From: an uncultured Candidatus Saccharibacteria bacterium
GTDB taxonomy: Bacteria > Patescibacteriota > Minisyncoccia > Phycocordibacterales > CAIZLB01
Assembly (NCBI GenBank): GCA_964368945.1
Contig: CAYJDM010000002.1
Location: forward strand, 85,386 to 149,385
DNA: 64,000 bases
Direction of reading: 5' to 3'
Position numbers and translations under genes: made by a program. The notes below the pieces were generated by a model that was not told where the DNA came from, searched no databases, and was given only the letters and a program-made list of their open reading frames with translations. Of the stretch, positions 7,766-58,263 are shown in pieces. Positions within the stretch are counted from its first letter, which is position 1; every line of letters begins with the position of its first letter.

Positions 7766-7769
7766 AAAA

Positions 7770-8972: not shown

Positions 8973-9020
8973 AAAAATCCAGGGTCGGAGAACTGGATCG
9001 GACCAAGGCAAATATACAAT

Positions 9021-9512: not shown

Positions 9513-9522
9513 TGATATAGAA

Positions 9523-10026: not shown

Positions 10027-10052
10027 CAGGCGGCCCAGAAATTTTTATCCAT

Positions 10053-10601: not shown

Positions 10602-10605
10602 TCTT

Positions 10606-22256: not shown

Positions 22257-22898
22257 ATGTTATCATATATTTCACGTTTGGCAACAGTTATGACTACCAT
22301 AGCCCTATTTTCATTTCTCATACTCATCATGTCCGTGGTCGTCCACGAGGTGTCCCACGGTATAGTGGCTCTTTGGCAGGGGGACGAGACCGCAAAGAGG
22401 GCAGGACGGCTTACTTTGAACCCGATTAGCCACATTGACCTCTTCGGGTCTGTTCTTTTCCCATTGGCCTGCATCCTCCTTTCGACAGGGGTTATCCTAG
22501 GCTGGGCAAAGCCTGTGCCTATAAACCCCTATAATTTCAAGAATCGCCGCTTTGGGGAGGCTTTCGTAGCCTTTGCCGGCCCGCTCTCGAATATCCTTAT
22601 CGCCATTGTGGCCGGCCTTTATTTGCGATTCATGGGGGCGGGTATACCTATATATATGATAGAGCTGCTCCAGGCGACTGTTCTGATCAACCTGGTTTTG
22701 GCTATTTTCAACCTCGTGCCGCTGCCGCCATTGGATGGTTCCAAGATCCTGTACTCTTTTTTTCCTGAGAAAATGAGCAGATTCATGCGAGCCTTCGAGG
22801 GTTATGGCCTTATTGTTACGCTTCTTTTCGTATTTTTGTTCATCCGGGTACTGGATCCGGTCATTATTTTCATATACAGGCTGATTGTAGGGGTATAG
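22257..22898 (+). CDS. Site-2 protease family (M50) zinc metalloprotease.
   Basis: HEVSHG (HExxH) in TM1 and NLVPLPPLDGS (LDG motif). Confidence 0.7.
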   Translation: MLSYISRLATVMTTIALFSFLILIMSVVVHEVSHGIVALWQGDETAKRAGRLTLNPISHIDLFGSVLFPLACILLSTGVILGWAKPVPINPYNFKNRRFGEAFVAFAGPLSNILIAIVAGLYLRFMGAGIPIYMIELLQATVLINLVLAIFNLVPLPPLDGSKILYSFFPEKMSRFMRAFEGYGLIVTLLFVFLFIRVLDPVIIFIYRLIVGV

Positions 22899-27700: not shown

Positions 27701-27964
27701 CCGGACCAGGCTCTCGAGAATTGTCCGGCATATTGGGATACCGAATTGCCCGATGCATCGCTTAAGTTCAGCACGGTCTGCAAGATAAATGGCGGAGCTA
27801 CCGTTCCGGGAAAGAATCTTCTTCCAGGCGGAGCAGCCACATTCCTGCAGCCGGTAGGCAGACTTCATAGCCTGACATGCGCCATCTCCGACCTTGAAGG
27901 AGTTGCCAAGACCCTCACATCCGTAGCTCGATGCTATAGAATAGGCGAGCAGGTTGAGGATTAG
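24734..27964 (+). CDS. Large (1076 aa) cell-surface protein with a signal peptide, two central TM helices and a PKD-like domain.
   Basis: N-terminal signal peptide. TM pair around aa 460-500 (IIKIVLGIIAALAIVFILILAF / AVMMLLLAFGWTAF). PKD-like segment SVSTDPDGDQIRYAVDFDSNG. Confidence 0.6.
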   Translation: MSKFIISTLVALLGIIQAFVPASAFAAAKTIEEIGLTPNDVKNLTKDQIQGLLDSATVTYVDGKEPAADAATPLLPNTVNCFDNYSFGSVQANLVPSVSSAVSGSQITFSGNIVNGNAYPVVNGTLVVKIFKAAGNGQKNIDADDVVDEFNAVTNVNLPANGTLPVSVDWKIPAFLDSGSYKAVTFFVVAGKFNLLGLTFTDDIVGNTADFSVTGETGAVRFDKSTVNMNGGKFYFAAYPPRIADDQVKITATLVNTTSVEQTVPVAWQAYSWDAQHESNFIESDIQTVRVPANGKVETSHTVSDKANSVYYVRAVAESNGVKSIIGTRFVRPDANKLRINFPSIAKFPLVKGEKTDIFSCLHATNDMAGPADGKLVLTLKDKVGKVIHSYEYKGPVTSSMMGVKDSFVPDADYDELTLKAELYQGEALVDNVELTYDCKVIDPAACADNGMIIKIVLGIIAALAIVFILILAFKRKPKVTATSAVMMLLLAFGWTAFTSNTSAQNWWESAVLPGEARWEGTAPRMSTSWGGQRSELENVHIKVRYRTQIAKESGEALLGGETLTPGTKVKLKVLPYESNDIYWFGLGGVYDSPFGEWRAGSTPPAAGCQDKDYTSLGISGIPTVTSVYHRYMFFDLVMSPPTASIAETQNLDCGALVGGVATCSVVAEGPVKASFKFTPTTGKFYYSYFNRKPFEGLANPKPLSQVSAADRAACLAQTEEFGGYTVSVPEITKPYTFVADADPENQPPTVPVVTGTGWAKPGQSYSFSSVSTDPDGDQIRYAVDFDSNGITDTSLPGSGYVSSGAAMSTSKSWAALGTYTIKVKAEDTPGGLSSGWATHQVIVSEEDPFNGVTPPTNNPIDGKCVPGSDGCRTSCGDVAPIERGRTLTISTPGLCSADAVAMSPGTTLTGFTWKCQGAWQTVPQNCNVACETGIYSPIAGACADSVADYCPNLDGDQTDASKYDIVKDPATGVNRCMPKASIKYFKFSPDQALENCPAYWDTELPDASLKFSTVCKINGGATVPGKNLLPGGAATFLQPVGRLHSLTCAISDLEGVAKTLTSVARCYRIGEQVED

Positions 27965-28298: not shown

Positions 28299-30458
28299 AT
28301 GCAAAGAGATTATCCACTAGAGCGAGTACGAAACTTCGGAATCATCGCCCATATCGACGCCGGCAAGACGACTACGTCTGAGCGCGTTCTTTATTATACC
28401 GGCATGAGCCATAAGATCGGTGAGGTTCACGAAGGTGAGGCCGTAACTGACTGGATGGAACAGGAAAAGGAGCGAGGAATCACCATCACGGCTGCCGCGA
28501 TCACTTGTTTCTGGAACCCTACATATATGGGAACTGATATTTCAAAGCGGCATCGATTCAATATCATCGATACGCCAGGACATGTGGACTTTACCGTAGA
28601 GGTAGAGCGATCTCTCAAGGTTCTCGACGGAGGAGTCGTTGTATTCGACGGAGTTGCCGGAGTAGAGCCGCAGTCTGAAACCGTATGGCGACAGGCGGAC
28701 AAGTACCATGTTCCTCGAATCTGCTTCATCAATAAGCTCGACCGAACTGGTGCATCATTCGAGAAATCATATGCGTCTATCCTAGACCGATTGAATAAGA
28801 ATGCGATCCGAATGCAGCTTCCTATCGGAGAAGAGGCGACAGTAGAGGGCGTTGTTGATTTGGTAAAAATGAAGGCATATCGATTCGAAGGAGAAATGGG
28901 CTCTGACGTTATCGAAAGCGAAGTTCCAGAAAATATGAAGGCAGAAGCCGAGAAATACCGAGCTCAGCTCGTAGAAAAGGCTTGCGAATTCGACGAGGGA
29001 ATGATGAATGAATACCTCGAAGGCAAGCTTGATTTCACAGTTGATCAGATCAAGGCCGCTATGCGAAAGGGCGTTATCGCCAATAAGGTATTCCCAGTAT
29101 TCACGGGAACCGCTCTCAAGAATAAGGGCGTACAGCTTATCCTCGATGCCGTTGTCGATTACCTTCCATCCCCTCTAGACGTTCCGCCAATCACGGGAAT
29201 CGATCCTGAGACTGGAGAGACTATCGAGCGATCCGCATCTGACTCAGAGCCATTCGCCGCTCTCGCATTCAAATTGCAGAACGATCCATTCGTAGGTCAG
29301 CTTACATTCTTCCGAGTGTATTCAGGAACCGTCGAAGCCGGCTCATATTTGTACAATGCAACGACTGGCTCAAAGGAGCGACTCGGACGAATCGTACGAT
29401 TGCAGGCGAATAAGCGAGAAGAAGTAAAGAAGGTATATGCCGGAGAAATCGCGGCAGCCGTAGGTCTCAAGGATGCTCGAACTTCTCATACATTCTGCGA
29501 TGAGAACAAGCCTATCATCCTTGATCCTATCAAGTTCGCAGAACCGGTAGTATCACTCAAGATCGAGCCAAAGACTAAGGCTGATCAGGAAAAGATGGGA
29601 ATCGCTCTCAAGAAGCTTCAGGATGAAGATCCTACATTCCGAGTTTCATCAAATACGGAGACTGGAGAAACTATCATCGCCGGCATGGGTGAGCTCCACC
29701 TCGAAATCATGGTTGACCGAATGAAGCGAGAATTCTCAGTAGAGGCCGATGTAGGAAAGCCTCAGGTAGCATACCGAGAGACTATCCAGGGCGAAGCTGA
29801 AGAAGAATACAAATACGTTAAGCAGTCTGGAGGTAAGGGTCAGTACGGCCATGTTCGAATCAAGATCAAGCCTCTTGCACCATTGGTTGAAGGCGCGAAG
29901 ATCCCTAAGAACGTTCATCGAGAAGAAGGATTCGAATTCGTCGACTCCATCAAGGGAGGCGTTATCCCAATCGAATTCATCCCAGCAGTCGAGAAGGGCG
30001 TCAAGGAAGCCATGGATCGAGGTATCGTTGCCGGATTCGTTCTTACGAATGTATCTTGCGAATTGCTCTTCGGATCTTCTCACGATGTGGATTCATCTGA
30101 AATGGCCTTCAAGATCGCAGGTTCTCAGGCATTCCAGGCAGCTGCAAAGCGAGCCCGACCTGTCATCCTCGAGCCGATCATGAAGGTAGAATGCGTTATG
30201 CCAGAACAGTTCATGGGTGACGTTACAGGCTCGCTTTCAGGAAAGCGAGGACAGATCGAAGGAATGGAAGAGCGAGGCGGTCAGGGTCTCCGAGTCATCC
30301 GAGCCATGGTTCCATTGTCAGAAATGTTCGGATATACGACTGATATCCGATCTATGACGCAGGGACGAGGATCAATGACTATGGAATTCGATCACTACGA
30401 TGTCGTTCCGCCAAACGTCGAGAAGGCTATCGTCGAAGCGCGAAAGGTTACTGCATAG
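28299..30458 (+). CDS. fusA: Elongation factor G.
   Basis: [16 protein letters not shown]1 motif, with full-length conservation. Confidence 0.95.
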
Positions 30459-30480
30459 TCGGTAAGGAAAATTTTAGAGA

Positions 30481-30524
30481 AAAGAAAAAAGCGGCGTCCG
30501 GAACTTTCCGGGCGCCGCTTTGCA
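30481..30524. terminator. Bidirectional terminator after fusA.
   Basis: AAAGAAAAAA, then GCGGCGTCCGGA-actt-TCCGGGCGCCGC (12 bp with one G-U), then TTTG. Confidence 0.7.
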
Positions 30525-30838
30525 TTGGAGGAAGTCGAGAAGGTCATTCCTCGCCTCGGGCCATTCGAGCGGCCAGCGCGGTGATGGCAAGCGTCAGAGA
30601 GGGCGCGATCCAGCGCATTCTCGATGACAAATGTCTTCGCGGATCTGAGAGATCGATATGAACTTTTCGTATTCGGCAAAAATGCAGCATCATTTTTTTC
30701 ACCTCCTTTCGGTTTGTTGTTCTGTGATGCTTTTTTATTCTAGCATGCAGCCGTGGAGTGCGCGGATTATGTAAAAAAAATACGCCGGATCCCATCGCTG
30801 GGGTCCGTCGTTTTATTTTGTATGCCGATCGAATGCGC

Positions 30839-31753
30839 TCAGATCGGAGGTTTTTCAAGGTCGAATGGCGCATCCTCCTTTTCTTTCGCAGCGGCCTCCA
30901 TCGCCTTCGCCGCTGCCTCAGCTGCGATGCGAGCTTCGTTTTCGGCATTCGCTTTCTTGGTCAGCGCGCGCTTTACCTTGTCGAATCGCGTCGCATAGAC
31001 GAAGTATTTCGATTCCTGACAGGCTTCATCGCTGCTGCGTCCTTCCCAAGGAATCCAGGTTGCATAGTACATGCCGGCAAGAGCCTTGCTGAATTCGGGA
31101 CTGCTTCGATCGGCTGCAGAGAGGTTGCTCGATTGATACAATGCACATTTGCCAATATAGAGCGGTATGCCCGACATGAAGCGTCGCTTGGAGCGATAGA
31201 GCTCGGCGATGATCTTGCCGGCCGCTTTCGGCACGATGAGCGAGCGCTGCTGCATGAGGAAAGGGAATTTGCTCAGCGTCAGCGTCTTGATCAAGTGCGC
31301 GCCTGCTTTTCGCATATCGTCGGCAGTCAGGAATTCGAATGCTGTCCAGCGGGTATAATCCGCAACGGTTCCCCAGATTGGGAGATCGTCATTGATTCCG
31401 GGCGTCGTGATATGGTCATTTGCCCAAGCGCTGCCAGCGGTTACTCGTGCGAGATTGCGCGGCGTGCATTTCCAGAGCTGGTCTGGCGTTTTTCTTTTTC
31501 TCTTTGCCAGGCCTGGCGCTTTTTTCGGCCATTTCTTCGCAGGGGGACTGTGGCGGATGAGACAGGTAGTTTTCGCACTCATTTCTAGTCTAGTTTCTTG
31601 TTCGGGTTTTTGTTCTATGTTTGTGAAATTGGCGAACGTCTGTGAGGATCTGTTCTGTCCATAATGGTATGACATTTGAGTCAATCTCTTCCAGACAATA
31701 TATTTTGAGTCAATTTGATTTGACCGATTCATCAGGTTTTCGTTCTTGCGCAT
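30839..31753 (-). CDS. Hypothetical protein, possibly a degenerate phage-type N6-adenine methyltransferase-like protein. Start uncertain; the alternative ATG is at 31582.
   Basis: Basic N-terminal patch, a WKCTPRNL (W-x-TP) motif, and a later TWIPW. C-terminal Ala/Glu/Lys coiled-coil. Preferred over the overlapping Arg/Cys-rich plus-strand ORF. Confidence 0.4.
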   Translation of the reverse strand: MRKNENLMNRSNQIDSKYIVWKRLTQMSYHYGQNRSSQTFANFTNIEQKPEQETRLEMSAKTTCLIRHSPPAKKWPKKAPGLAKRKRKTPDQLWKCTPRNLARVTAGSAWANDHITTPGINDDLPIWGTVADYTRWTAFEFLTADDMRKAGAHLIKTLTLSKFPFLMQQRSLIVPKAAGKIIAELYRSKRRFMSGIPLYIGKCALYQSSNLSAADRSSPEFSKALAGMYYATWIPWEGRSSDEACQESKYFVYATRFDKVKRALTKKANAENEARIAAEAAAKAMEAAAKEKEDAPFDLEKPPI

Positions 31754-31762
31754 CGAGAGGTT

Positions 31763-31826
31763 GTTTTTTTGTAAAAAAATACGGCCTGCATACCGTGAGG
31801 TATGCAGGCCGCGCTGTTGTTTGTTG
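31763..31826. terminator. Bidirectional terminator between pyrF and the downstream hypothetical gene.
   Basis: TTGTTTTTTTGTAAAAAAAT, then GGCCTGCATACC-GTGA-GGTATGCAGGCC (12-bp perfect). Confidence 0.6.
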
Positions 31827-31840
31827 GCGCAAGCGCCTTA

Positions 31841-32644
31841 TCAGCCGGGGAGCCCCATGTGGATCTCCTCCAGTGTGCGCTCAACGGCGCCAAGAGGGTC
31901 TCCGTGCTGGAGGATTGGCCTGCCGACGATGATGCGCGAGGCACCTGCAGCGATGGCTTGCTGCGGTCCCATTTTCCGGCCTGTGGCCTGATTGTCGTCC
32001 CTTACGATTGACCATTCGGGGCGAATTGCAGGAGCATTGTATGAGAATCTGTCTCCGAATTTCTCGCGGAGATTCCCGATATCGGTAGCTGCAGAAACCA
32101 GTCCGCCGATGTCTGCCAGTGCGGCTTCTTTGGAAAAGCGCTCGGCTGCTTGTGCGATCGAGCATCCGTACAGTCTTTGGCAGACCTGCTCCGTATGGCT
32201 TGTCAGCACCGTAATGCCGATGATTTCTGTGGCTGGCAATTCGGCCTGAGCTTTTTCCATAGCCTCAGCGCCGGCGGTGCATACGACGGTCAGCAATTCG
32301 GGATCGAATTCGCGCAGGAACTTGCCGTCTGTCGCGAGAGTAGAATCGATATCGTAGAGCTTCAGATCTGCGAAGACCCCGAATCCGAGATCCCGCAAAA
32401 CCTGAAGCAGGTGCGTACCGTTAGCGCGCAGAAGGGAATTCACCTTAAGCGTTATCCCGGTGCCTTTGAGCTTTTTAGCAAAGGCGACCGCTTGTTTCAT
32501 CGCATTATCGGCGCGATCTTCCCTTGTTGTCGGATCGAAGTCGAGTGCGATGACAAGGCGCTCGCTTGGAGTGAGGTCTCTTTTTCTTATGGACATGATT
32601 TTCGGTATGTTGGGTGTTATGGGGCTATGCGGGGCATTCAGCAT
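31841..32644 (-). CDS. pyrF: Orotidine 5'-phosphate decarboxylase.
   Basis: LVIALDF, DLKLYDIDST (DxKxxDIxxT) and the C-terminal IIVGRPI motif. Confidence 0.7.
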   Translation of the reverse strand: MLNAPHSPITPNIPKIMSIRKRDLTPSERLVIALDFDPTTREDRADNAMKQAVAFAKKLKGTGITLKVNSLLRANGTHLLQVLRDLGFGVFADLKLYDIDSTLATDGKFLREFDPELLTVVCTAGAEAMEKAQAELPATEIIGITVLTSHTEQVCQRLYGCSIAQAAERFSKEAALADIGGLVSAATDIGNLREKFGDRFSYNAPAIRPEWSIVRDDNQATGRKMGPQQAIAAGASRIIVGRPILQHGDPLGAVERTLEEIHMGLPG

Positions 32645-33329
32645 TCAGCAATGCCCAATTGTCCAGCTCCTTTGGCCTGATCGCTCTGGAGCCATTTCGG
32701 CAGTATTCGCACTCAGCTTCGCTGTCCCATGTGGGCATATCGCGTTCCACGAGAGAGACTATCGTCCTGTCGCCAAGTTTCTTTTTGCCAGAACGATTGA
32801 CGATTACGGGAAGAAGATCCTGCACAATGCCGCCCGCGGCAATAATTGCCTGAATATTGAGAGCGAGGCTATCGCATGTGGTGACGACGTCTTCGCCGGC
32901 GAGGACGATTTCTCCTGCTTTGATGCCGGTTTTTTGGAATACCATCTTCTTGTCCGCGCCTTTTCCTTCGGGGATCGTGTATGCCCGGAGACATGGCAGA
33001 TCGTTCGGCCGGAACATTTCGATGTTGCGTGCGATATCGTGAACCAGGGTGATTGCGCCCATGGCCGGCCCGACAACGCGTTGGATTCCATCGATATTCA
33101 ATCCTTCGGCGAGCAGTAGCTTGATCAGATCAAAGGCGATCTCATTCACCAAGGCAGGGTGTTCCAGAACGACTTCGCTGTTAAAGAAGCCGCCCGAGTG
33201 CTTGCCAGAGGTGAGAAGGGCATGCGGCCGTTTCATATTGCCATCATGAACCCAGATGGCGTTCATGCGCTTATATATCTCGAACCATTTCTGGTCGAGC
33301 TTTTGTTTTAGCCTGGCTGGATTATTCAT
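32625..33329 (-). CDS. pyrE: Orotate phosphoribosyltransferase.
   Basis: PRPP-binding motif VLAGEDVVTTCDS. Overlaps the pyrF start by 20 nt, indicating an operon. Confidence 0.7.
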   Translation of the reverse strand: MNNPARLKQKLDQKWFEIYKRMNAIWVHDGNMKRPHALLTSGKHSGGFFNSEVVLEHPALVNEIAFDLIKLLLAEGLNIDGIQRVVGPAMGAITLVHDIARNIEMFRPNDLPCLRAYTIPEGKGADKKMVFQKTGIKAGEIVLAGEDVVTTCDSLALNIQAIIAAGGIVQDLLPVIVNRSGKKKLGDRTIVSLVERDMPTWDSEAECEYCRNGSRAIRPKELDNWALLNAECPA

Positions 33330-33998
33330 TGTCTTGATGTATAGGTTCTGTTTTCATGCTTTAAGCCGCATGATTTGGCCGTCAAAATTGCATTTTGCCC
33401 ATTCTGACTCTGTGAAGTAGGGTATAGCAGTTTGCCCGGGCAAGCAAGTGGAATGGATGTTATCTCGGCTGAGGGACGCACTTTGACTCCTGTCTAATGT
33501 GTGATACTATTTCCCCAACGCATTAAGCGTTTTGTTTCGAATCTTCTCGGTGTTTTTAAGACATCGAAGAGACGGCCTAGATTAGCCTTATTTTAGCAAA
33601 AGCCGCAAGGTAGATGCTGGAAAAAGCGCCAAAATAGCCAAATCAAGTTAAACCGATTGCTCGTGAATGTTGGTACAAACGGCTCAACAGAGGCCTTTAA
33701 TCCAACCTATGGCCCAATCGCCTACAACTGAATAAAGACAAATCACCTCTGCATCACCCCTTTGTTCGAGATTACCCGTCCCGTCATATTGTGAGACAGA
33801 GTGAGATAGTCAGTTTCTTTATCAAAAAGCTGATAATATAGCCGAATAAGCCTTATTTTGAGCCTTTTTTTGTTAAATAAGCCGAGAAGCACTGGAAACA
33901 ATTTTTATTTATCAATTTTGCTCCTTCTTACTAGCTTTTGCCAAGTTAACTGGCATATAAGGGCTAATAATAAGGGTAAATAACAACAAACACTAATT

Positions 33999-35192
33999 AT
34001 GGCAGGAACATTTGACCGATCAAAACCTCACGTAAACGTAGGTACAATTGGACACGTTGACCACGGTAAGACTACTCTTACTGCAGCTATCCTAAACGTT
34101 CTTCACCGAGCGGGTATGGAAGCGACTATTAAGGCTGTAGGAGACATCGACAAGGCACCTGAAGAAAAGGCGCGAGGAATCACTATCTCGCTCTCACACT
34201 CAGAGTACGCTACGAACAATCGACACTACGCTCACATTGATGCCCCAGGTCACGCCGACTACATCAAGAACATGATCACCGGAGCCGCTCAGATGGACGG
34301 TGCTATCCTCGTGGTAGCAGCGACTGACGGAGCTATGCCCCAGACTCGAGAACACGTTCTCTTGGCTAAGCAGGTAGGAGTTCCTAAGATCATCGTTTTC
34401 CTTAACAAGTGCGATATGGTTGATGATGCAGACATGATCGACCTCGTTGAAGCTGAAATCCGAGAACTTCTTACGAAGAACGGATTCGACGGAGACAACG
34501 CTCCTGTTATCAAGGGTTCAGCTCTCAAGGCTCTCGAAGCTCCAGGAGTTGATGACGAATGGTCTAAGAAGATCCTCGAACTTGCTGAGGCTCTAGATAC
34601 ATACATTCCGCTTCCAGTTCGAGAAATCGACAAGCCTTTCCTTATGCCAATTGAAGATATCTTCTCAATTGAAGGACGAGGAACTGTAGTAACTGGAAAG
34701 ATCGAGAAGGGACAGATCAAGGTTGGAGAGGAAATTGAGATCGTAGGTCTCAAGGATACTCAGAAGACTACTGTTACTGGTATCGAAATGTTCAATAAGC
34801 AGCTTCAGGAAGGACAGGCTGGCGACAACGCTGGTATCCTACTCCGAGGCGCGAAGAAGGAAGATCTTACTCGAGGACAGGTTCTCTGTAAGCCAGGATC
34901 AGTTAAGCCTCATACTGAATTCGAAGCTGAAGTATATATCTTGAAGAAGGAAGAAGGCGGTCGACACACTCCATTCTTTACAGGTTACAAGCCGCAGTTC
35001 TACGTTCGAACAACGGACGTTACTGGCGAAGTAACACTTAAGGAAGGCGTTGAGATGGTTATGCCTGGTGATACCGTCACTTTCAAGGTTAAGCTCGTAG
35101 CTCCTATTGCCCTAGAGGACAAGCAGCGACTAGCGATCCGAGAAGGAGGTAAAACTGTAGGCGCTGGTGTCGTTACGAAGATCGTAGCGTAA
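33999..35192 (+). CDS. tuf: Elongation factor Tu.
   Basis: [18 protein letters not shown] and NKCD motifs. Confidence 0.95.
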
Positions 35193-37561: not shown

Positions 37562-38404
37562 ATGAAACGATTTAAACCAACAACGCCGTCACGACGACAT
37601 ATTACGGTCGTATCATTCCGAGATCACATCACTACGAATGAGCCGTATAAGCCGTTGACGACAGGTTTCAGCCGAGGCGTCGGACGAAACAATACCGGAC
37701 GAATCACTACTCGACATAAGGGTACTGGTCATAAGCGAGCGTATCGAGATATCGACTTCAAGTTCGATAAGCGAGAAATTCCTGCGACCGTTGCCACTAT
37801 CGAGTACGATCCGAACCGAACTGGATTCATCGCGCTCTTGAACTATGCTGATGGCGAGAAGCGATATACGCTTCTTCCTCAGACGGTTCGAGTCGGAGAC
37901 AAGGTCATCTCTGCTGAAAAGGCAGAAGTGAAGCCTGGTAACCGATTGCCGCTTCGAAATATTCCTGTGGGAACATTCGTATACAATATCGAATTGCGAC
38001 CAGAGGGTGGTGCCAAGCTCGTACGAGCCGCGGGATCATTCGCTGAAGTCATCGCACAGGACAACGGATACACTCAGATCAAGATGCCATCAACTGAAAT
38101 TCGCAAAATCATCGATTCTGCTTGGGCTTCAGTAGGTTCGGTGTCCAATGATGAAAATCGACTTCAGAACTTCGGCAAGGCCGGACGAAGCCGATGGAAG
38201 GGTATCCGACCAACAGTCCGAGGTACTGCCATGAACCCTGTGGATCATCCACACGGAGGAGGCGAAGGCCGACAGGGACGAGGACGACGACGACAGATTT
38301 CAATTTACGGTAAGCCTACCGGAAAGGGACAGAAGTCGCGAAAGCCTAAGAAGTATTCAAGCAAGTTCATCGTTACTCGCCGAAAGGTTGGAAAGCGAAA
38401 GTAA
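37562..38404 (+). CDS. rplB: 50S ribosomal protein L2.
   Basis: Full-length L2, including GTAMNPVDHPHGGGEG. Confidence 0.95.
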   Translation: MKRFKPTTPSRRHITVVSFRDHITTNEPYKPLTTGFSRGVGRNNTGRITTRHKGTGHKRAYRDIDFKFDKREIPATVATIEYDPNRTGFIALLNYADGEKRYTLLPQTVRVGDKVISAEKAEVKPGNRLPLRNIPVGTFVYNIELRPEGGAKLVRAAGSFAEVIAQDNGYTQIKMPSTEIRKIIDSAWASVGSVSNDENRLQNFGKAGRSRWKGIRPTVRGTAMNPVDHPHGGGEGRQGRGRRRQISIYGKPTGKGQKSRKPKKYSSKFIVTRRKVGKRK

Positions 38405-38566
38405 TCGTAAGATTGCGAATAAGCGAGAATATAAAAAATATGACGGAGCGCGCAAGCGTTGCGTCCGCCGCGAGACTTCTCTCTCGGCGCCCCTTTCGAA
38501 GCATATCTGCTGATGTGCATCGGAGGGGACTCAGGGAGAGAAGCGATGGTGAAAAACTAGTCACCG

Positions 38567-38600
38567 AAAAGGCTGCCATGCTGGCGGCTTTTTCCTTTTG
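38567..38600. terminator. Terminator after rplB, which breaks the S10 operon.
   Basis: AAAAGGCTGCCA-tgc-TGGCGGCTTTTT, then CCTTTTG. Confidence 0.55.
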
Positions 38601-38628
38601 AGACATTAACTCCGCATTAATCTTTTCA

Positions 38629-38656
38629 TTGACAAAAGATGCTTGGGGCGTATCAT
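38629..38656 (+). promoter_or_regulatory. Promoter TTGACA-16-TATCAT for the PEP-CTERM gene, followed by a C/A-rich leader.
   Basis: Hexamers read directly. Leader: ccaaacccaggtccccagaccccaaacccagaa. Confidence 0.45.
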
Positions 38657-38767
38657 CAGATATGTTACTTTGCTTTGTGTCAATATCTGTCGCGCGCGAG
38701 ACACAAGCAGGGGAACACCAAACCCAGGTCCCCAGACCCCAAACCCAGAATACACAGTACCTAACAT

Positions 38768-39466
38768 ATGAAAACAAGATCCCAATTCGCATTTGCGGCC
38801 CTCGCGGTCGCCTTATGCGCTCCTCCTCAGAAAGCGAGTGCAATCATCAGTATCGCCTACGAAGTTGGTGTCCGCCTCGACGGCAATGCCTTGACTTTGG
38901 CGGGCACGCTGAATGGTGACTACGACCCGGATATCGTCACACCCGTTACGCCCAATATGACGCGCTACGGCGTCGTCTGTTGGTTCGTTGATGACGAACA
39001 TCCGGAAGCGACAATTCCGATTACGGGAATTACATATGCCCATTCTACTTTGCGAAATTCAGGTACCGCATCGTCGCTTGATCTCAACTATTCGGCACTT
39101 ACGTTTTTCCCGGAAGGGTCAGGCGCGCCGGTGGTTGGTCTGTATGACGAATCGAGGGTTAGTCTGACGTCGCAAGTCAATGGCCAGCAGGTGGTCGGAA
39201 CGACCTATCCTCAAGGGACCAAATACGTGGTCTTTGCTGATCAGAGGTTCAGTCAGACGATCGGCGGAGGGCAATATGCGCCGAACAGCGACGGTGAATC
39301 CCAGTTTCTCGACTGGACTTTCGTATTCACGCGCGAAAACGGCTCGTACCTGACGTCTGGTATTCGTGGATCCGTCATGCTGCAGAGCGTGCCGGAACCA
39401 GGCTCGGTCAGTATGCTCGGCATTGCCGCCATCGGCATGCTCCGCATTCGCAAGCGCCGCCTGTAA
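38768..39466 (+). CDS. PEP-CTERM sorting-domain secreted protein.
   Basis: A signal peptide. The C-terminus VPEPGSVSMLGIAAIGMLRIRKRRL has the PEP motif, a TM helix and a basic tail, which is the canonical exosortase substrate signal. GC is about 55-58 percent, against about 45-52 percent in flanking r-protein genes. Confidence 0.7.
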   Translation: MKTRSQFAFAALAVALCAPPQKASAIISIAYEVGVRLDGNALTLAGTLNGDYDPDIVTPVTPNMTRYGVVCWFVDDEHPEATIPITGITYAHSTLRNSGTASSLDLNYSALTFFPEGSGAPVVGLYDESRVSLTSQVNGQQVVGTTYPQGTKYVVFADQRFSQTIGGGQYAPNSDGESQFLDWTFVFTRENGSYLTSGIRGSVMLQSVPEPGSVSMLGIAAIGMLRIRKRRL

Positions 39467-39511
39467 GACACGGCGACGTCCAACCTCAAGCCCGATTCAA
39501 TCGGCAACACG

Positions 39512-39550
39512 GCGGTCACCCTGAAAAGGGGTGACCGCTTTTCTCTTTTT
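39512..39550 (+). terminator. Rho-independent terminator after the PEP-CTERM gene.
   Basis: GCGGTCACCC-tgaaaa-GGGTGACCGC, then TTTTCTCTTTTT. Confidence 0.8.
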
Positions 39551-39607
39551 CGCGATTTCGTATATTTAGAAACATTAACGCCAGATTAAGACACCAGCGA
39601 ATAAATA

Positions 39608-39636
39608 TTGACTTATGTCAATTAATAGTGTTAAAT
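39608..39636 (+). promoter_or_regulatory. Promoter TTGACT-17-TTAAAT, with the -35 box embedded in the palindrome TTGACttatGTCAA. Followed by a long C/A-rich leader of about 235 nt.
   Basis: Read directly. Leader: acacacagcaaaaccccaacacatcaacaccccccacaaaccctcaatcaaaacccc. Confidence 0.4.
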
Positions 39637-39877
39637 CTCGCTAGACGTTTCGTCTCATCTTTGCCTCTGTTCTGACGGTCCAACGACTGGCGGAAAAGAG
39701 GTATTTCATACAAATTGGTTAGTTTTATGGCAAAAAGGCTGCTGAAAGGCGCTTTTTTCATAAAAATAGAGGAAAAAACACACAGCAAAACCCCAACACA
39801 TCAACACCCCCCACAAACCCTCAATCAAAACCCCAAAGGACGGCGAAAATCGTTCCTTGAAAACTTAATACTGAATC

Positions 39878-41995
39878 ATGAAAACCACAACCTCCCAAAT
39901 CCGGGCGGCACTTATCGTGCTGGCCCTATTCTTCGGCTTCTCCCTCACTTCGTGCAAAACACCGAGTGGGCGTCAAGCTTCCGCCGCATCCCCTCAAAAG
40001 GCTGTGGCAACATCCCGTGCAACCGCACGCGATACACGCACTGCTTCCGCCCCGAAAGCCTCCAAAAAGGCCGACAGGGCGATCGCATCGACGACAAAGC
40101 CCATCGCAACGAATAAGTCCCCAATGACGGCCACGGCTCAAAACCAGCGGCCTCCGAAGGCAAAATTCATTGCCGGTCCCGATGATGAATACACGGTAAC
40201 GAAAACTGTCGCAAGACAGGTCAGCGCACCGCGCACACATCCTCAGGCTCCGCCTCTGACCCGAAACGATCCGAATCTATTCCCTGATACCAGCCATGGA
40301 AACATGGTTCCGGATGAGAGAATCCAGGTCGGCGGCGATTGGCAAGGCGGCATGTCCATTGAACTCGCAAGGGCGCTGGGCAAAATCCCATCCGGTCCAT
40401 CAGCTTCAGATATGCCCGACAGGGCAATGCGATCATCGCAAGATGTTCGTCCGCCAGTCGGCGATAATATGCTCGCGCCTCCAAGGTTCACCAAAGAGGA
40501 AGTCGAAAACATCGTTGAAAGCAAATCTGAGAAAAAGCCTGAAAAGAAGGCCGAAAAGACAATCGCAAAGGCAAAGATCGAAATCAAAGCGGCGGCTAAA
40601 ACCGCGGCTCCTTCCGAGCCTGAGAAAGTCGCAAGTCCGACTCCGAAGGAAACTCAGATCGCTTCGGCTCCCGTAGCAAAAGCGCCCGACCCACCGCCGA
40701 TACCGATACCGGCACCCGTGGCTGCAAAACCGCCTGAGATACCAGTGGCTCCGCCACCGCCTCCGGCCGTAGCGGCCATTCCAGAAATTCCCAAGAAAAC
40801 CCCGATCGTAGCGATCGTTCCAGAACCATCTCCCAAACCTCCGGTCGTAGCGACTGTATCAGAATCACAACCCAAAACCCCGGTCGTAGCGACCGTCCCA
40901 GAACCAGCCAAAACGACCCCGGTCGTAGCGGCCAACCCAGATTACGAACCGCAGATGAAGGCTTTTCTCCAAAAGGAGGCCAAATATCTGCGTCTCGCGA
41001 AAGGAGACGGCTTCAATGAGGCGTATATCGTCAGGGCATCCATTCTCACAAAGAAAATGCCCAAATCGGTACAAGGTTCCCAAAACGTCGGGACGCTGCA
41101 TTGCAGCGTCCAGCATTACGGCGAAGGCTTGCCTCTCGGCATAAGGATTTTTCAGGAAAAGCCAGGCACTAAACCCGGCAGTTTCATAACTGAAGGCGTA
41201 AGGCTCATTCCGAGCAATTCGCCCTTTGCGGAAATTCCAGCAGAATTCGAGCGTCCCGCGACTCATTTTGCATACGACATCATCGTCGATGCATCTGATT
41301 CTACCGAGACGTACATTGTCGAAATCGCTTTGGCCAAGGTTGCTCAAAGCATGCGACTCTACCTCCAGCAGGACGGGCAGGATATCGAGGCGCTGAAGAA
41401 GGATTTGAAAGGTGGAATTGCGAAAAACATCATGATTCCCATGCCTGGTCTCGACTGGCAGCCCAAGCCCGAAGTCGTCAAATCGGCGGCTTTACTAAAG
41501 GATGAAACGGCGGCAGCGTTGTTTCCCCCAGAGGTGTTTGCAGACAAAGCCGTGCCGGAACCGGACGGCGATAAGCCAAAGGTGACCGATTCGGCCAGCG
41601 GAGGCAGTCCATTCTGGAATTCCACGAATTCGCCTATATATCAGGTTGCCACAGTCGTTCTCTTTGGGGTAGGATCCTTCCTATTCTTCAAGGGGATTGC
41701 CATGTTCAGGCGTCCCCGGAAGCCGAAAGGACCTGCCGTGCTCGTTGAGAAAATGGAAGCGAAATCCGGCCAGCCTGCCAAGAGTTTGAATTCATGCTTT
41801 AAGGTGGTTGTCCCTAAGCCAATGGGCGCTGCTACTCTGCCCAAGCGCCATGATCCAGGCCTCGGGGTCAGAAAAATGTACACAAGCGATCGTGAAAAGG
41901 ATCAAGAGCCCAGAAGGAAAGGCTTTCCATTCCGAAGCCGCCAGACTCCTGAGTCTAAAGACAGGGCGGAGGATACGGAACCTGTCGTTTCTTAG
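39878..41995 (+). CDS. Proline-rich lipoprotein (705 aa) with a C-terminal TM anchor.
   Basis: Lipobox LTSC after the signal peptide. PxxP/PEIP/PVVATV repeats. C-terminal helix VATVVLFGVGSFLFF followed by RRPRKPK. Confidence 0.55.
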   Translation: MKTTTSQIRAALIVLALFFGFSLTSCKTPSGRQASAASPQKAVATSRATARDTRTASAPKASKKADRAIASTTKPIATNKSPMTATAQNQRPPKAKFIAGPDDEYTVTKTVARQVSAPRTHPQAPPLTRNDPNLFPDTSHGNMVPDERIQVGGDWQGGMSIELARALGKIPSGPSASDMPDRAMRSSQDVRPPVGDNMLAPPRFTKEEVENIVESKSEKKPEKKAEKTIAKAKIEIKAAAKTAAPSEPEKVASPTPKETQIASAPVAKAPDPPPIPIPAPVAAKPPEIPVAPPPPPAVAAIPEIPKKTPIVAIVPEPSPKPPVVATVSESQPKTPVVATVPEPAKTTPVVAANPDYEPQMKAFLQKEAKYLRLAKGDGFNEAYIVRASILTKKMPKSVQGSQNVGTLHCSVQHYGEGLPLGIRIFQEKPGTKPGSFITEGVRLIPSNSPFAEIPAEFERPATHFAYDIIVDASDSTETYIVEIALAKVAQSMRLYLQQDGQDIEALKKDLKGGIAKNIMIPMPGLDWQPKPEVVKSAALLKDETAAALFPPEVFADKAVPEPDGDKPKVTDSASGGSPFWNSTNSPIYQVATVVLFGVGSFLFFKGIAMFRRPRKPKGPAVLVEKMEAKSGQPAKSLNSCFKVVVPKPMGAATLPKRHDPGLGVRKMYTSDREKDQEPRRKGFPFRSRQTPESKDRAEDTEPVVS

Positions 41996-42035
41996 TCCGA
42001 AGCCTTGTTTCGAAATCCGCACACAAAACAACAGT

Positions 42036-42096
42036 CCCGCGTGGCACTTGCTCTGATGACGATCAGACAGGTGCCACCGCGGGGCTATTTTTATAC
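42036..42096 (+). terminator. Terminator after the lipoprotein gene.
   Basis: CCCGCGTGGCAC-23 nt-GTGCCACCGCGGG, then GCTATTTTTAT. Confidence 0.65.
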
Positions 42097-42208
42097 AAAA
42101 AATATGCCCGTCTGCATTAAAAACGCCTCAAAATTAGCCAAAAAACGGCTATTTTTCATAAAAAACTGACCATATGACATCACGGGAAGACCCCTGGAGA
42201 AGCCTCTG

Positions 42209-42236
42209 TTGACATAACTTTGTTTTTTGCTACTAT
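42209..42236 (+). promoter_or_regulatory. Promoter TTGACA-16-TACTAT, which restarts the r-protein operon at rpsS.
   Basis: Consensus -35. The -10 is TACTAT. The ATG of rpsS lies 44 nt downstream. Confidence 0.45.
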
Positions 42237-42280
42237 AACGTGCACTAGCTCAGTTTGGGCTATTATTTTTCGCATAAAAC

Positions 42281-42622
42281 ATGTCACGATCACTCAAGAA
42301 AGGTCCATTAGTAATCGAAAGATTGCTCAAAAAAATCGAGGGTAAAAAGCCTACCGAAACTGGCGTCATCAAGACGTGGTATCGAGCTGCGCACATTTCT
42401 CCCGAGATGGTTGGATTCATCTTCGGTGTCTACAATGGCAAGTCTCATGTCGAAGTGCTCGTAACTGAAGAAATGGTTGGTCACCGACTCGGAGAGTTTT
42501 CACCTACTCGAAAGTTCATCCGACACGGAGGAAAGATGCAGAAGGAACTCGACATTGCTAAGAAGCAGGCTGAGATCGATGCAGCTAAGTCCGCTAAGGC
42601 AGCCGTAGATACAAAAAAATAA
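42281..42622 (+). CDS. rpsS: 30S ribosomal protein S19, with a C-terminal Lys/Ala extension.
   Basis: S19 core [11 protein letters not shown]. Confidence 0.9.
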
Positions 42623-45945: not shown

Positions 45946-46034
45946 CCTCAAAAACCATTGACTTTGGGCCGCTAGATTGCTAGTATGCTCAAAGCTCAGT
46001 CCGAGCTATTTTTTTACGGAAAACAGACAATCAC

Positions 46035-51285: not shown

Positions 51286-51942
51286 ATGAAAAACAATAAA
51301 ATGAAAATGTCTCTACGCATAGGAGCATTGGTTCTCGCCGGAGTGCTCATCGGGGTAACCGCAAGCGCTCGAGCCGCGTGGACTAATCCTACGGCAACCC
51401 CTCCATCAGGAAATGCCGATGCGCCTTTGAATACTGGCTCGACTGCTCAGGGCAGGATGGGTGCGCTTTCAATTGGAAAAACATCGCCCACTTCAGGCAT
51501 CGCCCTCGATGTCGTAGGCAATGCCGCGGTCAATACGGGCGGGCTCGCGATCGGAACCTCTTCTACTTCAGGTGTCGCTCTCAACGTGAACGGATCTTCC
51601 GTCATAAATTCCATCGGAGTATTCAATTTGGTTGTCGCAACGGGCACTCCTGCTGCAGGCAAGGTCCTCACATCAGTCGATGGGGTGGGAACGGCAGGCT
51701 GGCAGACTCCTACCGCATCGATCCCGACTCCTACGTTCTATTCATATACCGGGGATATGCCAGGCTGGAATTCCGCTACGCAGACAATGTGGATCACGAT
51801 TGGAAGCTATTCATATTGCGCGATCAACAATATGGGTTCAGTTAACAACTTCGTAGCCCGAGTCCGAAAGAATGTTTCTACTGGCCTATGGCAGGTACAA
51901 TATGCCGGCATGACAGACGGATTCGGCGTCGCTTGTTTCTAA
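51286..51942 (+). CDS. Hypothetical secreted protein.
   Basis: Signal peptide. Gly/Thr/Ser/Ala-rich beta-type repeats. Confidence 0.45.
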   Translation: MKNNKMKMSLRIGALVLAGVLIGVTASARAAWTNPTATPPSGNADAPLNTGSTAQGRMGALSIGKTSPTSGIALDVVGNAAVNTGGLAIGTSSTSGVALNVNGSSVINSIGVFNLVVATGTPAAGKVLTSVDGVGTAGWQTPTASIPTPTFYSYTGDMPGWNSATQTMWITIGSYSYCAINNMGSVNNFVARVRKNVSTGLWQVQYAGMTDGFGVACF

Positions 51943-51976
51943 GCCCTACTAACCCTAATTTAAAAGGAAGCAATCC

Positions 51977-53257
51977 ATGAAGAATAAAAAAACAAAATCA
52001 TCCCTGCTGTCAGGCCTCATCGTGATGGCTGCTGCGGCCGCTTGCTTCGCCGTTTCGCTTTTTAGCGAGACGCCAAGCGTCGCCAATGCTCAAGGAGCTT
52101 CTGGAAACGTTGCCGGATTCGCTTGGTCTGCCAATACAGGATGGATTTCCTTCAACTGTACTAATACTTCTACATGCGGCACCATCTCATATGGCGTCAA
52201 TGTGGATGTGACTACAGGAAGCACGACTGGCTATGCCTGGTCTTCCAATGTCGGATGGATTTCCTTCAACCCTTCAGATCTTGCGGGTTGCCCAAGCGGA
52301 ACATGTGCCGCAAAGCTCCAGAGCGTAAGCGCGACGAATCAGAAGGGCGATAAGCCTCTCACTGGCTGGGCCAAGGCCGTACTTGGCGGCACCGCCGGAA
52401 CTGCCGGCTGGGATGGCTGGATCAGGCTCGATCATACTCAGAACAATGCGGTCTCATACAATTTCAAGACGCAGCAATTCACAGGATGGGCTTGGGGCTC
52501 TGATGTCATCGGCTGGATAAGCTTCAACTCACAGAACCAGGGAACCTCTCCGATATATGCCGTGACAGGTCCCGCTCCGACGATTCCGATCGACGATGTA
52601 TATGCTCTCGGCGGAATAGCCACGAGCTCGAAATGCGATGCTTCCAATGCCTCATATCTTGAAGTATCGGCTCCCGTAAACGGAAATGTCGGCCCTGATT
52701 TCACATATTCTGGATACTCAGTCACTTCCGCAGGAACGGTAAGCGCTTTGCCGACCGGATCGCTCTATGATGCGAGCAGCAGAATCGTATTCAAGCATTT
52801 CGTCTCTACGACAAGCCCATCATACAGATACGCGATCTATGCGCGAAGGACGAGCACGGGCGAATCCACTTCGACGGCGACATCGACGCTTACGGGCCTC
52901 AAATCGACTTTCACTTGCGATACGAATATGCCAGTCGATCCAGCCTCATTCAAATTCACTTCAAAGTCCTTCATTCTCAATCCCGATACGGTAAATGTAG
53001 GCGATCAATGCGTGGCATTCATGAGCTTTACCCATGACGGGGTGATTGATTCACAGGTAAGCGTAAATTGTACGCTGACAAGCCCTCCGGCAGCTCCTAT
53101 TGATCTGGGCTATCAGCTTACGAGCACCAGAAATGTAAATCCTGGCCTCCATACATATTCATGCACATTGGCAAGCTCGACGAATCCATCGACGATATAC
53201 AATACCTTCTCGATCTCTCGACGATGCTATAAGTCGACAGACGTAAAGGAGATCTAG
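51977..53257 (+). CDS. Hypothetical secreted protein with three G-[FYW]-AWS-x-N-x-GWISFN repeats.
   Basis: Signal peptide. Repeats: GFAWSANTGWISFNC, GYAWSSNVGWISFNP, GWAWGSDVIGWISFNS. Confidence 0.5.
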   Translation: MKNKKTKSSLLSGLIVMAAAAACFAVSLFSETPSVANAQGASGNVAGFAWSANTGWISFNCTNTSTCGTISYGVNVDVTTGSTTGYAWSSNVGWISFNPSDLAGCPSGTCAAKLQSVSATNQKGDKPLTGWAKAVLGGTAGTAGWDGWIRLDHTQNNAVSYNFKTQQFTGWAWGSDVIGWISFNSQNQGTSPIYAVTGPAPTIPIDDVYALGGIATSSKCDASNASYLEVSAPVNGNVGPDFTYSGYSVTSAGTVSALPTGSLYDASSRIVFKHFVSTTSPSYRYAIYARRTSTGESTSTATSTLTGLKSTFTCDTNMPVDPASFKFTSKSFILNPDTVNVGDQCVAFMSFTHDGVIDSQVSVNCTLTSPPAAPIDLGYQLTSTRNVNPGLHTYSCTLASSTNPSTIYNTFSISRRCYKSTDVKEI

Positions 53258-55015: not shown

Positions 55016-55120
55016 ATGGGCGCGGAATTGCATTTCAGATATCTTGTCACATGTCTTCTGTTCAGCCTTCGCAGGAGGCACCATGTAATACAGGAAAATT
55101 TATTCGAACGACGAGGACAG

Positions 55121-58100: not shown

Positions 58101-58180
58101 GGCCTGCCGTGCCTCAAGCGCCAGCGCCGACGCCTCCTCCTGCGGTGCCTACAACAGCCGATATGACGCCAAAAGCCTAA
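55121..58180 (+). CDS. FtsK/HerA/VirD4-superfamily P-loop ATPase (type IV coupling-protein-like), with an N-terminal soluble domain of about 600 aa and a Pro-rich C-terminus.
   Basis: Walker A VIGQTGTGKST. Walker B LYIDEFQN. Arg/Gln motif ARKYKLSLTMAHQFIAQL. No TM helix. Tail PLVPPTPVRPAVPQAPAPTPPP. Start chosen at MKGEH after a GAGGA. Confidence 0.6.
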   Translation: MKGEHVIRYLLMEHELAPSHSYEGKQFRNAEEELAYLRQVIVEKEARIAADTERRAQEYQKLGINPAETIDGAPMTAEGREKMIAAEVAHYTKQDADRVLHEHFAMPAEHAKDAAAAMNAELGQAINQEITLELSPDADDKRIEALIPRMYSEGILNTIQVVRNMNDPHLEDDFHRFLTQYVKQGLPTPGLKETMPEAKALHKTLYEVSLPEADAEKEGQKRTLKEIISSMEQFYSGMLSVDDQFAIELAVSEGSEEFVFYVSVPDATKSLFEKQFLGIFPDAKVMEKKDDYNIYNPDGVSMASEAQYARNAIYPIKNYAEFDFDPLNVVLNTFSQIRRDGEGAAIQIVLNPKSIHGRDYYTKEYKQALDEIQKGTKVKDAIDIRHTLLGKFGKAVGEIGKGVAEEFSPLKKSDEQKAKEKEKKIEQGKTVDQIAVDQITSKISSPIVEVNVRLVASAPNRERAERILSELESSFNQFDNSLGNAIKFGRPKSVGDIRGLLHKFTFRLFDEGSALPMSIRELNTMMHFPGDSITAQPQLKQNKANTAPVPMGLPEGGLYLGTNNHRNLRTKVYTTPEDRLRHFYVIGQTGTGKSTMLRNMIIQDIQAGNGVCFIDPHGSDVQDILAHIPKERFDDVIYFDPSYTERPMALNMLEYNRAYPEQKTFVVNELFSIFQKLYGGVPESMGPMFEQYFRNATMLVIEDPDSGCTLLDVSRVMSDKKFRDLKIANCKNPIVVQFWREIAEKAGGEGALANMVPYITSKFDVFLANDIMRPIIAQEKSSFNFREIMDGKKILLVNLAKGRLGDINSSLIGLILVGKILMAALSRVDSFGTNMNPFYLYIDEFQNITTPSIATILSEARKYKLSLTMAHQFIAQLDDSIKDAVFGNVGSMAVFRVGAEDAEVLQKQFEPVFKANDIMNIDNMNCYIKMLSHGKPVRPFNIEFTWPDHGNEAIVPSLKELSYLKYGKDRAIVDAAIILKYKKSEPLVPPTPVRPAVPQAPAPTPPPAVPTTADMTPKA

Positions 58181-58263
58181 TCCAGGCCTCCGCATCGCCG
58201 CCACATCATCCCGCTCTGCTCATCTTGGGCGGGTGGGATTTTGATATATACTTAAGGCCATCT

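Follow-up and report, generated by a model that had tools for sequence, protein, structure and literature searches.

Introduction

C-terminal sorting signals that combine a short motif, a hydrophobic stretch and a basic tail have been described in distinct protein-processing systems. The PEP-CTERM signals, associated with the exosortases (EpsH, Xrt), are typical of diderm bacteria. In the archaeosortase A (ArtA)/PGF-CTERM system of monoderm archaea, which processes the S-layer glycoproteins, the C-terminal helix is removed and a lipid anchor substituted for it, and the LPXTG signals of the sortase system display the same three-part layout in a monoderm setting. The present report deals with a stretch of 64,000 nucleotides (nt) (contig CAYJDM010000002.1, positions 85,386 to 149,385; hereafter the window) from an uncultured bacterium of the Candidate Phyla Radiation (CPR), in which two genes, ORF1 for a protein with a PEP-CTERM tail and ORF2 for a proline-rich lipoprotein, stand between rplB and rpsS, two ribosomal protein (r-protein) genes of the S10 operon. 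The CPR bacteria are ultra-small and presumably lead a host-attached life, and, to our knowledge, almost nothing is known of their surface proteins.

With the PEP-CTERM/exosortase system, ORF1 shares the signal peptide and a three-part C-terminus, in which the PEP motif precedes a hydrophobic helix and a cluster rich in Arg. It departs from this system by its host, a CPR bacterium of the Parcubacteria, regarded as monoderm, by its single target instead of many, by the lack of any exosortase seen in the window or near the homologues and of any exopolysaccharide locus, and by a gene that is locked to a gap of a ribosomal operon. Archaeosortase A offers a precedent for such a C-terminal signal in cells that lack an outer membrane, although the motif of ORF1 is VPEP with no PGF, the organism is bacterial and no archaeosortase was identified. 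Unlike the LPXTG proteins, the ORF1 family has an invariant P-E-P and no Thr-Gly scissile pair, the equivalent positions being variable; no sortase gene occurs in the window.

Accessory surface genes lodged between conserved genes represent another known arrangement, found in hypervariable antigen loci, e.g., the pneumococcal cps locus between dexB and aliA and the O-antigen locus of Escherichia coli between galF and gnd, as well as in core-genome integration hotspots. The locus reported here resembles the cps and O-antigen loci in the presence or absence of its genes and the allele swaps among close relatives, and in a cargo that is more diverged than its flanks. It differs from them in that the flanks are r-protein genes of the S10 operon, in that the cargo consists of proteins and not of polysaccharide synthesis genes, and in that the recombinational exchange is here inferred.

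Organization of the locus

The distance between rplB and rpsS amounts to 3.9 kb (from position 38404 to position 42281), as an earlier note on this DNA, made from its letters alone, had reported, and two plus-strand open reading frames (ORFs) occur in between. The genes and their coding features are as follows.

37562-38404, plus strand: rplB (protein uL2), an ORF with which the transcription unit of the upstream r-proteins ends
38768-39466, plus strand: ORF1, a secreted, β-rich protein of 232 residues with a signal peptide and a PEP-CTERM tail, belonging to a small locus-tied family
39389-39466, plus strand: PEP-CTERM sorting signal of ORF1, VPEPGSVSMLGIAAIGMLRIRKRRL, recognized by TIGR02595 and PF07589
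39878-41995, plus strand: ORF2, an envelope protein of 705 residues with a lipoprotein signal, a stalk, a globular region, a transmembrane helix and a basic tail
40757-40930, plus strand: four 39-nt tandem repeats coding for a stalk of the P-V-V-A-T-V-P-E-P type (repeat family D1)
42281-42622, plus strand: rpsS (protein uS19), an ORF with a Parcubacteria-type Ala/Lys-rich C-terminal extension

The two genes are best understood as a native, accessory envelope cassette, lodged at a point where the S10 operon is permanently interrupted throughout the class, a reading for which we would put the probability at roughly 70%. The r-proteins place the window in the Patescibacteria, among the Parcubacteria/Paceibacteria, its uL2 being 76% identical to the top Parcubacteria match among the GTDB species representatives and 95% identical to the uL2 of two closer loci, L084 and L093 (loci and contigs used for comparison are designated by such numbers). 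A CPR host had already been assumed from the letters, and both this placement and the Ala/Lys extension of uS19, described as Parcubacteria-specific (PMC9297842), agree with it.

The break between rplB and rpsS

The junctions of the S10 cluster were measured in 80 loci fetched with uL2, including 12 non-CPR controls. In the controls, the gap from rplB to rpsS is 9-70 bp, whereas among the 55 CPR loci in which both genes are present it measures 500-7350 bp in 40 and 79-370 bp in 10, and is tight in 5. The adjacency of the two genes, which had been regarded as essentially universal, thus holds in the non-CPR controls and fails in the host's own class. The remaining S10 junctions are tight in the CPR loci, save for occasional insertions between rpsJ and rplC. 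The break between rplB and rpsS is consequently a trait common to the class Parcubacteria/Paceibacteria. Its cargo is heterogeneous, the 78 ORFs found in the gaps being distributed over 41 Pfam families, e.g., diacylglycerol kinase, DUF3298, L10/L12, MscS-like channels and PemK toxins, together with IS200-type transposases, proline biosynthesis genes and glycosyltransferases.

A common arrangement occupies the last ~75 nt upstream of rpsS throughout the class and consists of a TTGAC[AT]-N17-TAnnAT promoter followed, after a few nt, by a GC-rich hairpin and a U-rich run. A promoter equivalent to that of rpsS in the window was found in ~50 Parcubacteria loci, and the hairpin with its T-run stands upstream of rpsS in 43 of 50 loci, compared with a mean of 1.4 and a maximum of 5 in shuffled sequences. 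Across the leader alignment 88% of the cells pair, and five of the six base pairs vary on both sides; this covariation score was attained in none of 500 shuffles, the alignment having been fitted to a covariance model and hence being biased towards it. The leader model also matches in the window between rplE and the next gene (45979-46023, with the -10 element, the hairpin and the U-tract) and, in relatives, upstream of the rpsJ block. Owing to these matches at other r-protein units, the module looks like a general head of the r-protein transcription units in this class. The -10/hairpin/U-tract module was also encountered at 15192-15236 of L093 and at 8411-8455 of L096. An Rfam scan gave no match at gathering score in the window and two chance-level matches in the region 38300-42400.

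In this class, transcription of the genes from rpsJ to rplB would stop at a terminator located downstream of rplB, and rpsS and the downstream genes would restart from a conserved sigma-70-type promoter of their own, followed by the covarying hairpin and the U-tract. The spacer left between the two r-protein units tolerates inserted genes, the cargo being unrelated from one locus to the next. The leader of the E. coli S10 operon, where L4 mediates attenuation, and other r-protein leaders likewise present a promoter and a hairpin with a U-tract in front of an r-protein block. Unlike the E. coli S10 leader, the hairpin begins here a few nt past the predicted start site, it has no match in Rfam, and the same module heads further r-protein units. 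On the most far-reaching reading of the data, itself doubtful, the promoter-hairpin-U-tract module would represent a new kind of leader for r-protein units.

The literature searches returned no description of an S10 operon break in Parcubacteria, and the break, its conserved leader module and the CPR-confined, single-address family of PEP-CTERM proteins appear to be undescribed in the literature searched. The S10-spc block, the contiguity of which is taken for granted, is the standard marker for the placement of CPR genomes; a fixed, cargo-collecting break between uL2 and uS19 matters for both synteny-based binning and annotation.

A second and rarer expansion site lies between rpsJ and rplC, where insertions of 800-2300 bp occur in ~10 loci (L023, L034, L037, L044, L045, L059 and others).

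A cassette at a fixed address

Seven homologues of ORF1, sharing 22-32% identity with it and originating from different samples, have a readable genomic context, and all seven are located between rplB and rpsS. The loci that harbour them are the nearest relatives of the window: their identity to it over 10-15 r-proteins is 79-93%, against 72-74% for the GTDB genome that follows and at most 65% for the others. Within this clade, which is of family level, the loci share a common gene order, namely a peptidoglycan-binding repeat protein, the PEP-CTERM protein, an optional acidic protein on the reverse strand, an ORF2-type protein and, often, a CAP-domain protein. The ORF2-type member consists of 590-890 residues and combines a lipobox, a Pro-rich ectodomain, one transmembrane helix and a cytoplasmic tail. 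With ORF1 and ORF2, the window contains a reduced, two-gene version of this cassette. As far as can be judged from the sequences retrieved, the PEP-CTERM family is confined to the CPR and to one genomic address. Since its address is predictable, this small and fast-evolving cluster of envelope genes lends itself to surveys of metagenomes.

The gene that opens the complete cassette, absent from the window, is found at 8296-9633 of L084, 4283-5359 of L085 and 7915-9063 of L088. Its product contains repeats of the type C-x-D-G-x-D-N-D-x-D-x(3)-D-x-S-D-x-(D/E)-C, after which comes a peptidoglycan-binding-like domain.

Turnover between close relatives

Depending on the relative, the gap is empty, as in L093 (GCA_013565575.1; a gap of 493 bp, with r-proteins 93.1% identical to those of the window) and L096 (325 bp, 94.5%), which both retain the terminator region and the promoter-leader of rpsS, or contains four genes, as in L084 (92.9%). 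Two contigs, L083 and L097, share an overlap of 758 bp that is 100% identical, and a sister strain was reconstructed from them. The S19 proteins of this strain and of the window are identical, and the S3 and L16 proteins are 99% identical. The synonymous divergence (dS) between the two strains is 0.08-0.21 for the flanking r-protein genes, compared with 1.61 for ORF1, which is 57% identical at the protein level, with a nonsynonymous divergence (dN) of 0.38 and a dN/dS ratio of 0.24. The sister-strain ORF2 is a mosaic, with dS varying from 0.18 to 1.0 along the gene, an unrelated transmembrane helix and tail, and a dN/dS ratio of 0.37. These two ratios indicate that both genes are functional and under purifying selection. 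In addition, the sister strain keeps the upstream peptidoglycan-binding gene (its 3' end lies in L083), the alignment with the window breaking at ~38604; this gene has apparently been lost from the window.

The pattern suggests a replacement of alleles from a diverse pool, combined with frequent loss. Because of this turnover, and of the diverged ORF1 between conserved flanks, the region behaves like a surface-antigen locus. The alleles may be exchanged by homologous recombination, with rplB and rpsS serving as arms, possibly with the aid of the genes for competence and type IV pili that lie in the same window. A type IV pilus set (PilB, PilC, a pilin and pilin-like genes) and ComEC, which together form the usual DNA-uptake machinery, are encoded at 6011-12393 and 18570-20069. 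Selection on a surface in contact with the host or exposed to phages would be the driver of such exchanges.

ORF1 and its PEP-CTERM signal

As read from the sequence, the signal peptide of ORF1 consists of MKTRSQ followed by a hydrophobic core, with a cleavage near the junction of ASA and II, and all homologues have a signal peptide of this kind. The PEP-CTERM signal, already recognized in the earlier note, stood up to the hidden Markov model (HMM) comparison that had been proposed for it: the tail scores 23.1 bits with TIGR02595 (cutoff 16), as well as 21.7 bits with Pfam PF07589 (cutoff 20.7; residues 207-231), and the NCBIfam matches of ORF1 are exclusively PEP-CTERM models. Beyond the tail, ORF1 has no match in Pfam, NCBIfam, PHROGs or the PDB sequences. 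A word-indexed search of 5.8 billion proteins retrieved ORF1 itself and one homologue of 57% identity, and an exhaustive HMMER search of 1.84 billion representative proteins yielded ~10 further full-length homologues (22-32% identity), all equipped with a signal peptide and a VPEP...RRRR tail. ORF1 is approximately equidistant (29-32%) from all homologues, regardless of their r-protein distance.

Among 12 homologues with 22-58% identity, the P-E-P is invariant, in a family that contains just six invariant columns as a whole, and the family motif can be written as [VI]PEP, the next position being occupied by G, S, N, A or L. Such an invariance in an otherwise diverged family suggests that the motif is recognised by something and, on the strength of these comparisons, the PEP-CTERM signal of ORF1 may be taken as real. 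ORF1 would be exported by Sec and retained in the membrane through its C-terminal helix. An enzyme of the exosortase or archaeosortase type, encoded elsewhere, may well cleave it at the invariant PEP, after the model of ArtA acting on the PGF-CTERM proteins of monoderm archaea. A conserved PEP-CTERM signal in a lineage without a known exosortase would mean either that the system extends to monoderm bacteria or that a new processing enzyme exists.

Two sets of candidates for the enzyme were discarded. A six-helix transmembrane ORF of 213 residues in the window (22257-22898) is a Peptidase_M50, and the reverse-strand genes of the related islands code for soluble acidic proteins devoid of transmembrane helices.

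ORF2

The second gene had been described as coding for a proline-rich lipoprotein, and ORF2 indeed shows, from its sequence, a lipoprotein signal with the lipobox FSLTSC (Cys26), of the pattern [LVI][ASTVI][GAS]C, and a stalk rich in Pro, Ala and Lys, followed by a globular region (~350-560), a single transmembrane helix (~586-608) and a basic cytoplasmic tail of ~95 residues at the C-terminus. The same architecture occurs at the same position in six other loci, and the lipoboxes of the positional homologues read FLGAC, FVQSC, SLTAC, AGTSC and FLTAC. ORF2 has no match in Pfam, NCBIfam, PHROGs or PDB, and the word-indexed search of 5.8 billion proteins returned ORF2 alone. Residues 381-604 are 26% identical over 232 residues to the positional homologue of L084 (E = 1.6e-11, in a small local comparison), and the homology to the sister-strain protein of L097 is strong. 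ORF2 would be a lipid-anchored, membrane-spanning stalk protein.

A VPEP at residues 559-562 of ORF2 was considered as a second sorting signal and rejected, as it is conserved neither in the sister strain nor in the positional homologues.

Alternative explanations

The earlier note took the two genes for a recent insertion of foreign origin, and a donor of the diderm, exosortase-using and exopolysaccharide-producing type would account for several features: the GC content of ORF1 (55.2%) and ORF2 (54.6%), which does exceed the 43-50% of the r-protein genes as had been claimed, a tetranucleotide deviation (z = 2.7) greater than anywhere else in the window, a PEP-CTERM signal of the kind found in diderm bacteria, and the empty gap of two near relatives. 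However, full-length homologues lie at the same locus in related Parcubacteria in all seven cases with a readable context, which is the finding that the note itself had named as speaking against its proposal, and the search of 1.84 billion representative proteins yielded no homologue of the mature domain from a diderm organism. The genes are accompanied by neither an integrase nor a transposase, and by no tRNA or flanking repeat. Their excess of GC resides at codon position 2, as it does in the other secreted hypothetical proteins of the window, and their GC content at the third codon position (GC3), 0.61 for ORF1 and 0.56 for ORF2, compares with 0.50-0.65 for the non-ribosomal genes of the window. 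The composition check thus gave a divided answer, with a native GC3 and a GC z-score of 1.5, and a tetranucleotide deviation that makes the region the top-deviating 3.9-kb stretch, almost equalled by r-protein windows and due in part to the contribution of low-complexity repeats. The C/A-rich leaders had been held to betray a common foreign origin; they do lack a Shine-Dalgarno (SD) sequence, but the SD core is absent in 44 of the 48 window genes, the genome being essentially SD-free, and the G fraction in the 20 nt upstream of the start codons is 0.11, against 0.25 overall, so that leaders of this kind are the house style. A recent foreign insertion is therefore very unlikely, and the designation as an island stands only for a content that is accessory and turns over fast, as illustrated by the empty, four-gene and diverged-allele relatives. 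Another way of explaining the separation of rplB and rpsS, by an assembly chimera or a binning artefact, might be suggested by the metagenomic nature of the contig and by two Logan contigs that stop shortly past ORF1. The misassembly, which had been put forward as a possible objection, is effectively excluded by a junction between rplB and ORF1 that is 100% identical in two independent assemblies (L081 and L082, the latter reaching position 39700), by the sister contigs L083 and L097, which join the counterparts of ORF1 and ORF2 to rpsS, rplV, rpsC and rplP (with the ORF2-rpsS junction in L097), and by the same layout in seven other samples. It is also highly improbable that ORF1 and ORF2 are the cargo of a site-targeting phage, transposon or other mobile element: the gaps of other Parcubacteria do hold IS200-like Y1 transposases (three loci) and toxin-antitoxin genes, but neither ORF has a match in PHROGs, no recombinase occurs in the island and no tRNA in the window, the terminal inverted or direct repeats are of chance size only, and the synteny is conserved across the clade.

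The reading as a native envelope cassette with a processed surface protein has to reckon with a number of adverse observations, to which the tetranucleotide deviation also belongs. The structure predictions were unusable and gave no fold-based function, neither for ORF1 (two-sequence alignment; predicted local distance difference test score, pLDDT, of 35) nor for residues 345-640 of ORF2 (pLDDT 40). The promoters, terminators and leader hairpin are sequence predictions, and the recombinational exchange is deduced from the contrast in dS, for which saturation or locally raised mutation rates offer alternatives. No exosortase (EpsH/Xrt, PF09721) was found among the window ORFs scanned with Pfam, as had been noticed before, and in nine related loci the genes called within 10 kb yielded none either. 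Typical exosortase genomes possess many PEP-CTERM proteins; the window contains one such tail in 64 kb, and a regular expression applied to ~1.5 Mb of loci, including the 1.27 Mb of the 80 rplB loci (Parcubacteria relatives and the 12 non-CPR controls), found no PEP-CTERM tail outside the ORF1 family, the expression being somewhat strict, since it recovered eight of the ~11 known tails of the family and missed that of the window itself. The literature searches, moreover, yielded nothing linking exosortases with the CPR. The missing exosortase, the single PEP-CTERM protein per locus and the silence of the literature would all be expected if the tail were a plain C-terminal membrane anchor, with no sorting enzyme involved and ORF1 staying in the cytoplasmic membrane. 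An anchor would have no need for a P-E-P that remains invariant among 12 homologues of 22-58% identity with six invariant columns in all; the HMM scores also exceed the curated cutoffs, and we regard this explanation as rather unlikely. A processing of ORF1 by an exosortase- or archaeosortase-like or a novel enzyme comes close to an even chance, without quite attaining it. The more far-reaching proposal that Parcubacteria, which are devoid of an outer membrane, run a functional PEP-CTERM pathway on one hypervariable protein, encoded inside the class-wide operon break and with alleles swapped across the rplB and rpsS flanks, is tentative and, on balance, doubtful. If it were true, the cassette would be the antigen locus of the lineage, in contact with the host or exposed to phages, and the sorting enzyme would either resemble the exosortases or archaeosortases without having been recognised as such, or be unrelated to them.

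Predicted promoters, terminators and non-coding elements

The cassette and its flanks are punctuated by the following non-coding elements.

38476-38545, plus strand: long hairpin in the 3' region of rplB, with 95% identity in L084 and 86% in L093 with compensatory changes
38566-38600, plus strand: predicted intrinsic terminator after rplB, made of a hairpin and a T-run, from its fold and a weak terminator-type Rfam match
38629-38656, plus strand: predicted ORF1 promoter TTGACA-16-TATCAT, with a score of 11/12, kept in the sister strain (L083)
39511-39549, plus strand: predicted strong intrinsic terminator after ORF1, with a 12-bp stem at 39511-39539
39578-39776, plus strand: non-coding element upstream of ORF2, with a promoter-like site, two hairpins, and a further hairpin followed by TTTTTCATAAAAA (39731-39766)
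42033-42094, plus strand: predicted terminator after ORF2, made of a long hairpin (42033-42085) and a U-run, with a fold z of -6.4
42135-42164, plus strand: small hairpin followed by the second copy of the 13-mer TTTTTCATAAAAA, from a sequence scan
42209-42236, plus strand: predicted rpsS promoter TTGACA-16-TACTAT with a TG in front, from a scan, kept in relatives
42246-42273, plus strand: promoter-proximal leader hairpin (TAGCTCAGTTTGGGCTA) and U-tract upstream of rpsS, from the class-wide hairpin counts and covariation

The punctuation that the earlier note had outlined was recovered for the most part. The terminator predicted after rplB, an equivalent of which is carried by L093, those predicted after ORF1 and ORF2, and the fresh promoter in front of rpsS all find a counterpart in this list; of the two TTGACA-type promoters attributed to the genes of the cassette, that of ORF1 is found as described, whereas ORF2 has only a weaker TTGACT-17-TTAAAT (39608-39636), unflagged by the promoter scan and 100% kept in L083. 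The rpsS promoter is conserved in L084-L088, L001, L092, L093 and L096. The long hairpin in the 3' region of rplB occurs as one copy in the window, in an intergenic surrounding with a fold z of -6.0, and matched no Rfam family. The alignment of L083 with the window starts at ~38604. The terminator of ORF1 shows a compensatory change in L083 (T to C paired with A to G) and has an 85% match immediately downstream of the ORF1 homologue of L084, and the intergenic DNA around the terminator of ORF2 is 90% identical to L097.

The element located upstream of ORF2 (39578-39776) was compared across two sequences, the window and the sister strain, and keeps 90-100% identity with L083 in 40-nt windows, compared with 61% nucleotide identity for ORF1. 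The palindromic TTGACTTATGTCAA occupies the -35 position of its promoter-like site. The element may correspond to an operator associated with an attenuator, or to a small RNA; a metagenome scan with the intergenic element between ORF1 and ORF2 gave no match. The 13-mer TTTTTCATAAAAA occurs in exactly two copies in the 64 kb (39754-39766 and 42152-42164), with 0.1 expected, and each copy is located downstream of a small hairpin, ~115 nt before the start codon of ORF2 or rpsS. These hairpin modules were also considered as cassette recombination sites, an idea made less likely by their number of only two copies and their terminator-like look.

Other features of the window

Further interruptions of conserved gene blocks occur in the window. 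A secreted protein of 1076 residues with a weak PKD match (24734-27964) is encoded between rpsG and fusA and breaks the str operon; L093, which is devoid of the island between rplB and rpsS, possesses a counterpart of 1074 residues upstream of fusA. Similarly, fusA and tuf are separated by ~3.5 kb (30458-33999), a region that includes, on the reverse strand, pyrF and two genes for hypothetical proteins, and represents a further interruption of the usual block of r-protein and elongation-factor genes. The genes secY, adk and map are normally contiguous, and here two secreted hypothetical proteins of 218 and 426 residues, both with signal peptides, are encoded between adk and map (51286-53257). 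Finally, a protein of 1054 residues with weak matches to the coupling proteins of type IV secretion (TraG/TrwB-like) is encoded at 55016-58180. A P-type ATPase ORF (57895-60705), listed with a TTG start, begins ~285 nt before the end of this gene, and its true start probably lies further downstream.

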